Below are positions 28,269-28,670 of a DNA stretch of 29,860 bases, piece by piece. The position numbers and the translations under genes are program-made. The notes beneath the pieces were generated by a model that made no database searches, was not told the DNA's origin, and saw nothing but the letters and a program-made list of their open reading frames with translations. Origin of the DNA: a virus. Taxonomy: Duplodnaviria; Heunggongvirae; Uroviricota; Caudoviricetes. The stretch lies in IMG/VR virus record IMGVR_UViG_2703718820_000019, one strand, 5' to 3'. The stretch's first letter is position 1. The number at the start of each line of letters is the position of its first letter.

Positions 28269-28670
28269 TTATTTCCCTGTGTAAAGACGTGTTTGGGATG
28301 AAAGTAACACTTGCCCCTGTTTAGGCGTCAACGAACCTATTTCATTGCATGTTTTTAATGGTTCGGAAAAAACATAACCGATGGATTTATATTGATTAAC
28401 TATGCTTATTTCTTTGATTTTTTTGAGATATGAAACAGGCGTGTCTTTTGTCCAGACTGGTGCGCATACACCAGTCATAATCAGGTTGTTGTAGGCGTCA
28501 GGAGAGATTTCTTTGCCAGGAAGCACCACCGTAAGCGAGTTGTTTTTATTCGTGATTTCTAGGGGTTGCCATGGTTTAAGCTGCTTTTGAAGGGTTTTAA
28601 TATCATTCGCGTTTGCGTTGAGTGAAATTATTAAGGTGGCTATTGCCATCACTGATTTAAGAGTTGCCAT
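28269..28670 (-). CDS. Small secreted/periplasmic hypothetical protein (signal peptide); probable prophage cargo at the ogr-att junction
   Basis: 133 aa; N-terminal signal peptide (hydrophobic core ...AIATLIISLNANA, probable cleavage after ANA); two Cys in the mature part. ATG at 28670 with AAGGA SD. The gene is visibly AT-rich compared with the flanking DNA. Confidence 0.7.
   Translation of the reverse strand: MATLKSVMAIATLIISLNANANDIKTLQKQLKPWQPLEITNKNNSLTVVLPGKEISPDAYNNLIMTGVCAPVWTKDTPVSYLKKIKEISIVNQYKSIGYVFSEPLKTCNEIGSLTPKQGQVLLSSQTRLYTGK

Follow-up and report, generated by a model that had tools for sequence, protein, structure and literature searches.

The right end of a P2-like prophage was analysed in a 29,860-nucleotide stretch of DNA (IMG/VR virus record IMGVR_UViG_2703718820_000019, Caudoviricetes), the whole of which we call the window. 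The late genes of the prophage are oriented rightward, and its right end carries, in order, ogr, a terminator (hairpin 1), an open reading frame (ORF) of 133 aa, a second terminator (hairpin 2), the P-arm repeats of the phage attachment site (attP), a 47-bp attachment (att) core and the host gene fieF (Table 1). Here we describe this ORF, referred to as the cargo ORF, and the cassette that contains it. A preliminary description of the DNA had placed at this position a gene for a 133-aa protein with a signal peptide and two cysteines, convergent to ogr and in a region more AT-rich than the prophage. We recovered exactly this reading frame on the strand opposite to ogr, found a signal peptide with n, h and c regions by inspection and hydropathy, and measured a G+C content (GC) of 0.39-0.40 across 28200-28950 compared with 0.52-0.59 in the upstream prophage. 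The ORF itself has a GC of 0.393 and a third-position GC (GC3) of 0.388, and the departure of 0.39 from the ~0.55 of the phage backbone is the compositional deviation by which morons are recognised.

Table 1. Features of the window discussed in the text, numbered from its first nucleotide
Feature	Coordinates	Strand	Description
Integrase gene	1-1011	-	Extreme left of the window
Gene D	26754-27917	+	Late region, with rightward late genes
ogr	27999-28217	+	Late-gene activator, 72 aa; translation starts MFHCPLCQHAAH; final core phage gene before the cargo
Hairpin 1	28227-28252	both	Bidirectional intrinsic terminator of ogr (+) and the cargo ORF (-); terminator scan
Direct repeat GGGGCTTTCA, left copy	28244-28253	+	10 bp
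Cargo ORF	28269-28670	-	133 aa, PHROG 3807, predicted exported; ATG start, stop codon within the coordinates
Predicted signal peptide	28608-28670	-	Secretory (Sec) pathway/signal peptidase I (SPase I); codons 1-21, MATLKSVMAIATLIISLNANA; inspection and hydropathy; cleavage before N22
Shine-Dalgarno sequence AAGGA	28677-28681	-	6 nt before ATG; within a 5' untranslated region (5'-UTR) block conserved across genera
Conserved leader AACCAAATGTTTAATAAGGA	28682-28700	-	Upstream alignment
Candidate weak sigma-70 promoter	28705-28733	-	-35 TTTATT at 28728-28733, 17-nt spacer, -10 TATGAA at 28705-28710; by eye
Hairpin 2	28731-28755	-	Intrinsic terminator, stem then CTTTATTTTT; directly upstream of the candidate promoter of the ORF; terminator scan
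Direct repeat GGGGCTTTCA, right copy	28748-28757	+	10 bp
attP P-arm repeats	28765-28783	+	Two direct ATGTGGAC repeats 11 bp apart; candidate Int arm-type sites by analogy with P2
att core, attR copy	28833-28879	+	47 bp; three- and four-way attR/attB/attP/attL alignments
fieF	28958-29860	+	Host gene, first chromosomal gene right of the prophage

Relative to phage Wphi the cassette is a 504-bp insert that follows the ogr terminator and precedes the attP P arm. The Wphi sequence has 24 bp, with one terminator hairpin, from the ogr stop codon to where the P-arm homology begins. The P2 genome (NC_001895) is annotated with the same compact layout, in which the terminator comes straight after ogr, then the Int P arm at the equivalent position, the integration host factor site and the attP core. 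The cassette is absent from both phages, in agreement with the earlier claim that P2 has no gene between ogr and attP. Hairpin 1 is the counterpart of the single ogr terminator of Wphi and P2, as judged from the Wphi alignment and the P2 annotation, and it folds on both strands, with energies of -21 kcal/mol (z -5.1) on the + strand and -16.9 kcal/mol (z -2.6) on the - strand. Hairpin 2, with a fold energy of -13.5 kcal/mol (z -3.1) on the - strand, would stop int read-through across attP in the circular phage. The cassette is further bracketed by the 10-bp direct repeat GGGGCTTTCA, which has just two matches in the window, 504 bp apart, against a chance expectation of 0.09.

The preliminary description had made the question of a phage-borne gene or a separate islet depend on the position of the att core. 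We compared four sequences, namely attR (at the window's right end), attB (the unoccupied cpxP-fieF locus in E. coli K-12), attP of Wphi and attL of E. coli 20KM0223N, a strain that carries the same prophage (99.7% identity to the window over 28200-28950) and in which the identical ogr stretch is annotated ogrK. The 47-bp core lies to the right of the gene and matches K-12 attB between cpxP and fieF, to which it was scored as identical; left of the core attR tracks phage sequence and right of it attR tracks the host. A single position in the core, 28859, differs between phage and host, with A in attP (Wphi, P37 and GMS190) and C in attB. The phage base is found in attL and the host base in attR, which places strand exchange to the left of 28859. 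On these alignments the prophage insertion is a normal Int-mediated event. The P' arms of Wphi and of attL contain the ATGTGGAC motif pair of the P arm as well. Both the P-arm repeats and the core stand between the ORF and host DNA, which puts the ORF inside the phage genome; it is neither a host gene nor a separate islet.

In K-12 the core (1045-1091 of the extracted locus) overlaps the 3' 44 nt of the annotated, Cpx-regulated small RNA (sRNA) cpxQ, terminator included. In lysogens the cpxQ 3' end at attL therefore comes from the phage and has a C-to-A change in the loop, and a second, orphan copy of the cpxQ terminator lies just upstream of fieF at attR. Wphi1 has been reported at cpxP-fieF in E. 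coli W (PMC3032704). An Rfam scan of 28200-28960 gave nothing above the gathering score, and no annotated RNA therefore accounts for the region.

Phage genome records also contain the cassette. Yersinia phage GMS190 (99.0%) and phage P37 (81%) contain the entire stretch that begins at ogr and runs through the core, and Salmonella phage FSL SP-004 aligns with it from a point inside the ORF up to the core end (74%) and encodes a complete protein. Between the window and P37 (28600-28832) the ogr 3' end, P arm, hairpin 2, leader and signal-peptide codons are near-identical and the remainder of the ORF is ~75-80% identical, a mosaic divergence that indicates either recombination with a breakpoint within the gene or an exchange of mature-domain alleles. 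In metagenome contigs with a 45%-identical homologue (P0013) the circular order is int, 240 bp, ORF, ogr and D. The fieF-ORF-ogr-D synteny was also found in prophages of Citrobacter koseri, Klebsiella aerogenes, Serratia ficaria and Salmonella Newport. A 194-kb linear "plasmid" of the last of these (NZ_CP051374.1, Salmonella Newport p20723-1) holds fieF, pfkA, sbp and cdh together with a P2-like prophage junction, and it looks like a mis-assigned chromosomal fragment.

We found the cassette in 44 of 5426 complete E. coli genomes, as two alleles (27 genomes at >=99% identity and 17 at ~79%). A single alignment joins it to fieF in each of the 44, which makes every carrier a lysogen at cpxP-fieF, and the gene occurs at no other E. 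coli position in this sample. The P arm of this att type is present in 664 E. coli genomes, ~7% of which (44/664) have the cargo gene. A chromosomal gene of the host, or an independent islet beside the prophage, would fit a gene that adjoins the host junction and differs in base composition from both of its neighbours, and the preliminary description had considered that such a gene might occupy the same place in prophage-free E. coli. That was not what we observed: the empty K-12 site contains cpxP, cpxQ and fieF alone, the carriers are lysogens without exception, the P arm and att core separate the gene from host DNA, and the gene is present in phage genome records and in contigs that join int, attP and the ORF. 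A host gene or islet is rejected on these grounds and its probability is negligible. We conclude that the cassette has the anatomy of a prophage moron, a compositionally foreign, terminator-bracketed and putatively autonomous gene in a variable slot near the end of the phage genome.

The sequence upstream of the ORF was aligned from six sources: E. coli, P37, Citrobacter, Klebsiella, Serratia and a metagenomic homologue whose protein is 45% identical. The candidate promoter reads TTGTTT-N17-TATAAA in the homologues from Citrobacter, Klebsiella and Serratia, and the conserved TTGTTT/TTTATT-N17-TATAAA/TATGAA arrangement suggests a weak promoter. The leader AACCAAATGTTTAATAAGGA is kept even in the 45%-identical homologue, beyond the need of the Shine-Dalgarno sequence alone, and it may be a regulatory element. 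The cargo gene could also serve as an accessory of the lytic cycle, for example in lysis timing or in blocking re-adsorption of progeny to lysing cells, which would suit its position right after the late gene D and ogr, a position conserved across Peduoviridae genera, and the lack of a recognisable strong constitutive promoter. However, the ORF is antisense to the late operon with terminators on both sides, no Ogr-type TGT-N12-ACA box was seen by eye in its upstream sequence, and the lysis genes are elsewhere in the genome. Neither P2 nor Wphi has the gene, and ~93% of the prophages that share this att type lack it, so it is dispensable for lytic growth. We consider a lytic role clearly improbable.

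The predicted signal peptide has an n region of MATLK with K5, an h region of SVMAIATLIISL and a c region of N-A-N-A. Its hydrophobic core spans residues 6-17, with 10-mer Kyte-Doolittle values up to 2.55, and A19-N-A21 forms an A-x-A site with predicted cleavage after A21, so that by inspection the peptide shows both the n-h-c organisation and the small residues at -3 and -1 expected for Sec/SPase I substrates. From this the product is predicted to be exported as a mature protein of 112 aa, ~12.5 kDa and isoelectric point 9.4, with cysteines C69 and C108 that probably form a stabilising disulfide. There is no lipobox L-x-x-C at the end of the signal peptide, and the first cysteine is residue 69, so the protein does not have the lipobox expected of exclusion or conversion lipoproteins of the Cor/Llp/Bor type. 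Structure prediction, one of the checks proposed in the preliminary description, gave a confident model, with a predicted local distance difference test (pLDDT) score of 88.8 overall and >93 over nearly all of the mature domain. No catalytic signature is apparent in the product, which resembles a binding module. Searched against PDB sequences, neither the single sequence nor a profile gave a significant match, Foldseek against a viral library matched solely uncharacterised homologues, such as that of Serratia phage KSP20, and a periplasmic lysozyme inhibitor or a protein like T4 Spackle was not indicated by any Pfam, PDB or fold match to solved inhibitors. Nothing on the cargo gene came up when the literature was searched for its RefSeq protein and for the carrier phages.

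A homology search, likewise proposed beforehand, yielded a family and no characterised member of it. The ORF matches PHROG 3807 over its full length (residues 1-133, E 2.7e-56), and since this family has no assigned function, membership is silent on mechanism. A word-indexed search found 15 clusters, all from Enterobacterales, and against 1.84 billion representatives a profile search recovered 217 relatives with E <= 1e-3, 93 of them at E <= 1e-10. Family statistics were taken from 118 aligned relatives, mostly of 120-140 aa, among which 116 have an N-terminal hydrophobic segment and 112 have exactly two cysteines. Near-invariant residues are P36, C69, N92, G98 and C108, and a W-x-P motif is present. 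A few relatives are lipoproteins, and in others the domain is C-terminal, following a transmembrane and coiled-coil region, pentapeptide repeats, SH3_3 or bPH_3; fusions to Excalibur/YARHG-like regions occur as well. These fused architectures would agree with an extracytoplasmic binding domain, and the pentapeptide repeats, SH3_3 and bPH_3 of the long relatives gave no clear functional pointer.

Pairwise ratios of nonsynonymous to synonymous substitution (dN/dS) were 0.19-0.23 where dS was unsaturated. A dN/dS of ~0.2 together with 217 profile relatives means that the ORF is not a chance reading frame, and the substitution pattern identifies it as a real gene under purifying selection. A decaying or non-functional hitch-hiker might be suspected from its rare and patchy occurrence and from one truncated or frameshifted variant each in Serratia and E. 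coli (P0014 and P0015). Such a hitch-hiker is very unlikely given the low dN/dS with synonymous sites near saturation, the full-length conservation across genera with invariant LKPWQP and two cysteines, the conserved Shine-Dalgarno sequence and 5'-UTR, and the confident fold. A spurious ORF is excluded by the same substitution ratio, cross-genus conservation and number of relatives.

We also examined what else occupies the slot between ogr and the P arm. In E. coli this slot has at least three states: it is empty, it holds the cargo ORF, or it holds another insert of ~750 bp. The ~750-bp insert encodes a 213-aa protein (WP_000416605.1) that matches the PADLOC model PD-T4-10_B (E 2.3e-34, profile positions 139-346/353), and this PD-T4-10B-like gene was found in 160 of the 5426 E. 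coli genomes, separate from the 44 carriers. It lies on the same strand as ogr, as in E. coli 23070 (NZ_CM190136.1, locus 1491-2132), where the slot corresponds to window positions 28254-28747, and no partner 'A' gene is annotated beside it. PD-T4-10 is an experimentally validated abortive-infection system of the toxin-antitoxin type, directed against T-even phages (PMC9519451). The P2 hotspots named in the available portions of PMC9519451 and PMC13586616 are A-Q, the tail-gene locus with fun (downstream of GpL), int-primase and int-att, and the ogr-attP side is not named among them there. PMC13586616 binned positions by few core genes, and the ogr-attP slot may have been counted in it under 'downstream of GpL'. 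At the classical A-Q (old/tin) hotspot of the present prophage, 5764-6252 (+) encodes a ~150-aa protein whose N-terminus resembles that of a DUF3850/DUF7415-named gene at the same position in a related contig (L009).

Homologues with 26-42% identity lie directly downstream of D, and convergent to it, in other Peduoviridae genera. In Klebsiella phage ST147-VIM1phi7.1 the homologue is located between D and an ogr-like gene, with att at tRNA-Met, and further homologues downstream of D are Burkholderia KS14 gp9 and Serratia KSP20 orf1. This recurrence after D across genera indicates that the gene is an old, recurrent and dispensable Peduoviridae passenger. More distant homologues are found in integrase-bearing islands beside EcoRII/Vsr/methylase genes, protein kinases or an AAA+/S8 protease pair. 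On pQBR103 (L032 3725-5366) the homologue is co-oriented with a tyrosine integrase gene and begins 23 bp after it. A place right after such an integrase gene, in the same orientation, is a recurrent arrangement in the family: it is seen both on pQBR103 and in the circular P2-like form (L009 4756-6417), in the latter with attP in between, and it may be mere gathering of cargo at the ends of elements. In three alphaproteobacterial integrase-bearing islands (L017 6702-7001, L018 6678-6980 and L021 5822-6987) the family member is the second gene of an operon, the first gene encodes a ~100-aa secreted two-cysteine protein (GYVGCVT... motif) or a membrane coiled-coil protein, and a divergent XRE-type regulator stands upstream in two of the three (L018 and L021).

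These wider contexts bear on a role in lysogenic conversion apart from phage defence, in which the periplasmic product would raise the fitness of the host, for example as an inhibitor or immunity-like binder (against colicins, type VI secretion system effectors or lysozymes) or as a modulator of envelope stress or transport. Small exported domains of the disulfide type are typical of periplasmic inhibitor and immunity proteins, the family extends to plasmids, chromosomes and islands outside phages in Alpha- and Gammaproteobacteria, and in Rhodobacterales-type islands its members follow a small secreted two-cysteine protein with a divergent XRE regulator. The fusions with SH3_3, pentapeptide repeats, bPH and Excalibur/YARHG-like regions are binding-module-like as well. 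In P2-like phages, however, no partner toxin gene adjoins the ORF, and the repeated finding of the gene at one position across several Peduoviridae genera suggests an advantage centred on the phage. We regard conversion of this kind as doubtful, and a non-phage fitness or immunity role is nearly as likely as exclusion.

The explanation that we tentatively prefer is that the moron product is an envelope-acting exclusion or protection factor made in the lysogen. In this proposal the ORF would be a self-contained moron of a P2-like prophage of the Wphi att type, expressed in the lysogen from a weak constitutive promoter. The 133-aa precursor would be exported by Sec, cleaved after Ala21 and folded in the periplasm into a compact alpha/beta domain of ~12.5 kDa, probably with one C69-C108 disulfide. 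There, working in the envelope as a binder or blocker, it would shield the lysogen against incoming phage, by superinfection exclusion during the periplasmic step of infection, or against some related attack on the envelope, which would benefit the prophage without being needed in lytic growth. The context for exclusion is the predicted export, the moron architecture and the defence-like alternative cargo in the same slot. The preliminary description had offered the gene as a candidate conversion or exclusion factor. The structural part of that claim stands, as the P arm and core separate the gene from the host, phage records contain it and the empty K-12 site does not, and the functional part is a hypothesis with contextual support.

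Several results weigh against exclusion. Pfam and NCBIfam scans of the ORF gave no match, the sole NCBIfam line being noise (E 0.068), a PADLOC-DB 2.0 scan returned 0 families at E <= 1, and a Pfam scan of the 118 aligned relatives also gave no match. Across the sequence, profile and structure searches described above, no characterised homologue or structural neighbour was found. A sigma-70 consensus scan reported no promoter upstream of the ORF, the candidate falling below its threshold. The cargo of a single neighbouring allele is weak guilt-by-location evidence. Some homologues are in plasmid or chromosomal contexts without a phage or defence link, and the basic activity of the family may be more general than phage exclusion. 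Homology to Glo of Vibrio cholerae phage K139 was considered and rejected, with a BLASTP E of 0.13 and an hhalign alignment of 23 columns that covers the signal peptide only.

P2-like prophages rank with the most frequent prophages of E. coli, and anti-phage genes are abundant in their accessory slots. Most known cargo acts in the cytoplasm, and the cargo ORF is a compact, single-gene candidate whose product is predicted to be exported. The phenotype is cheap to test, since carrier and non-carrier phages are near-identical across the ogr 3' end, P arm and att core. If a periplasmic block were true, the ORF would represent a new protein family in the sparsely populated class of periplasmic anti-phage proteins; if not, it would be one more uncharacterised moron. 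A broader proposal, which we think rather unlikely, is that the ORF is a testable founding member of a new periplasmic anti-phage (superinfection-exclusion) family that recurs at the D/ogr-attP end in several Peduoviridae genera, and that the slot is a third small cargo/defence hotspot of Wphi-type phages, occupied alternately by the cargo ORF or a PD-T4-10B-like toxin gene. The cargo gene is an ordinary kind of prophage add-on, from a family without a characterised member or a close structural neighbour, and the existence of such a gene would not surprise a phage biologist. Its value is as a testable candidate, along with an att site for this prophage type mapped to a 47-bp core in the cpxQ sRNA terminator and the recognition of the ogr-attP junction as a variable cargo slot that also houses a defence-like gene.

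The cargo ORF shares several properties with the P2 morons old, tin and Z/fun, which serve the lysogen, and with the P2 hotspots described in PMC9519451 and PMC13586616, namely foreign composition, variable presence, a position between conserved modules and non-essentiality. The ogr-attP slot, with its three states, resembles those hotspots in its behaviour. Unlike old, tin and Z/fun, it occupies another locus, its product is predicted to be exported rather than cytoplasmic, and it matches no PADLOC model. Among individual proteins, the best functional analogue for the proposed role would be Glo of K139 (Peduoviridae), a 137-aa protein annotated as a periplasmic protein involved in phage exclusion. 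Like the cargo protein, Glo is small, has a signal peptide and two cysteines, and comes from a temperate P2-like phage in which its gene is near int/attP and outside the morphogenetic operons. In contrast to the cargo ORF, which is a separate ogr-attP unit, glo belongs to the cI-int lysogenic operon, upstream of int and on the other side of attP. T4 Spackle, P1 Sim and the Cor/Llp lipoproteins are exported phage proteins that block infection at the envelope, and the mechanism proposed for the cargo protein would place it in the same class.
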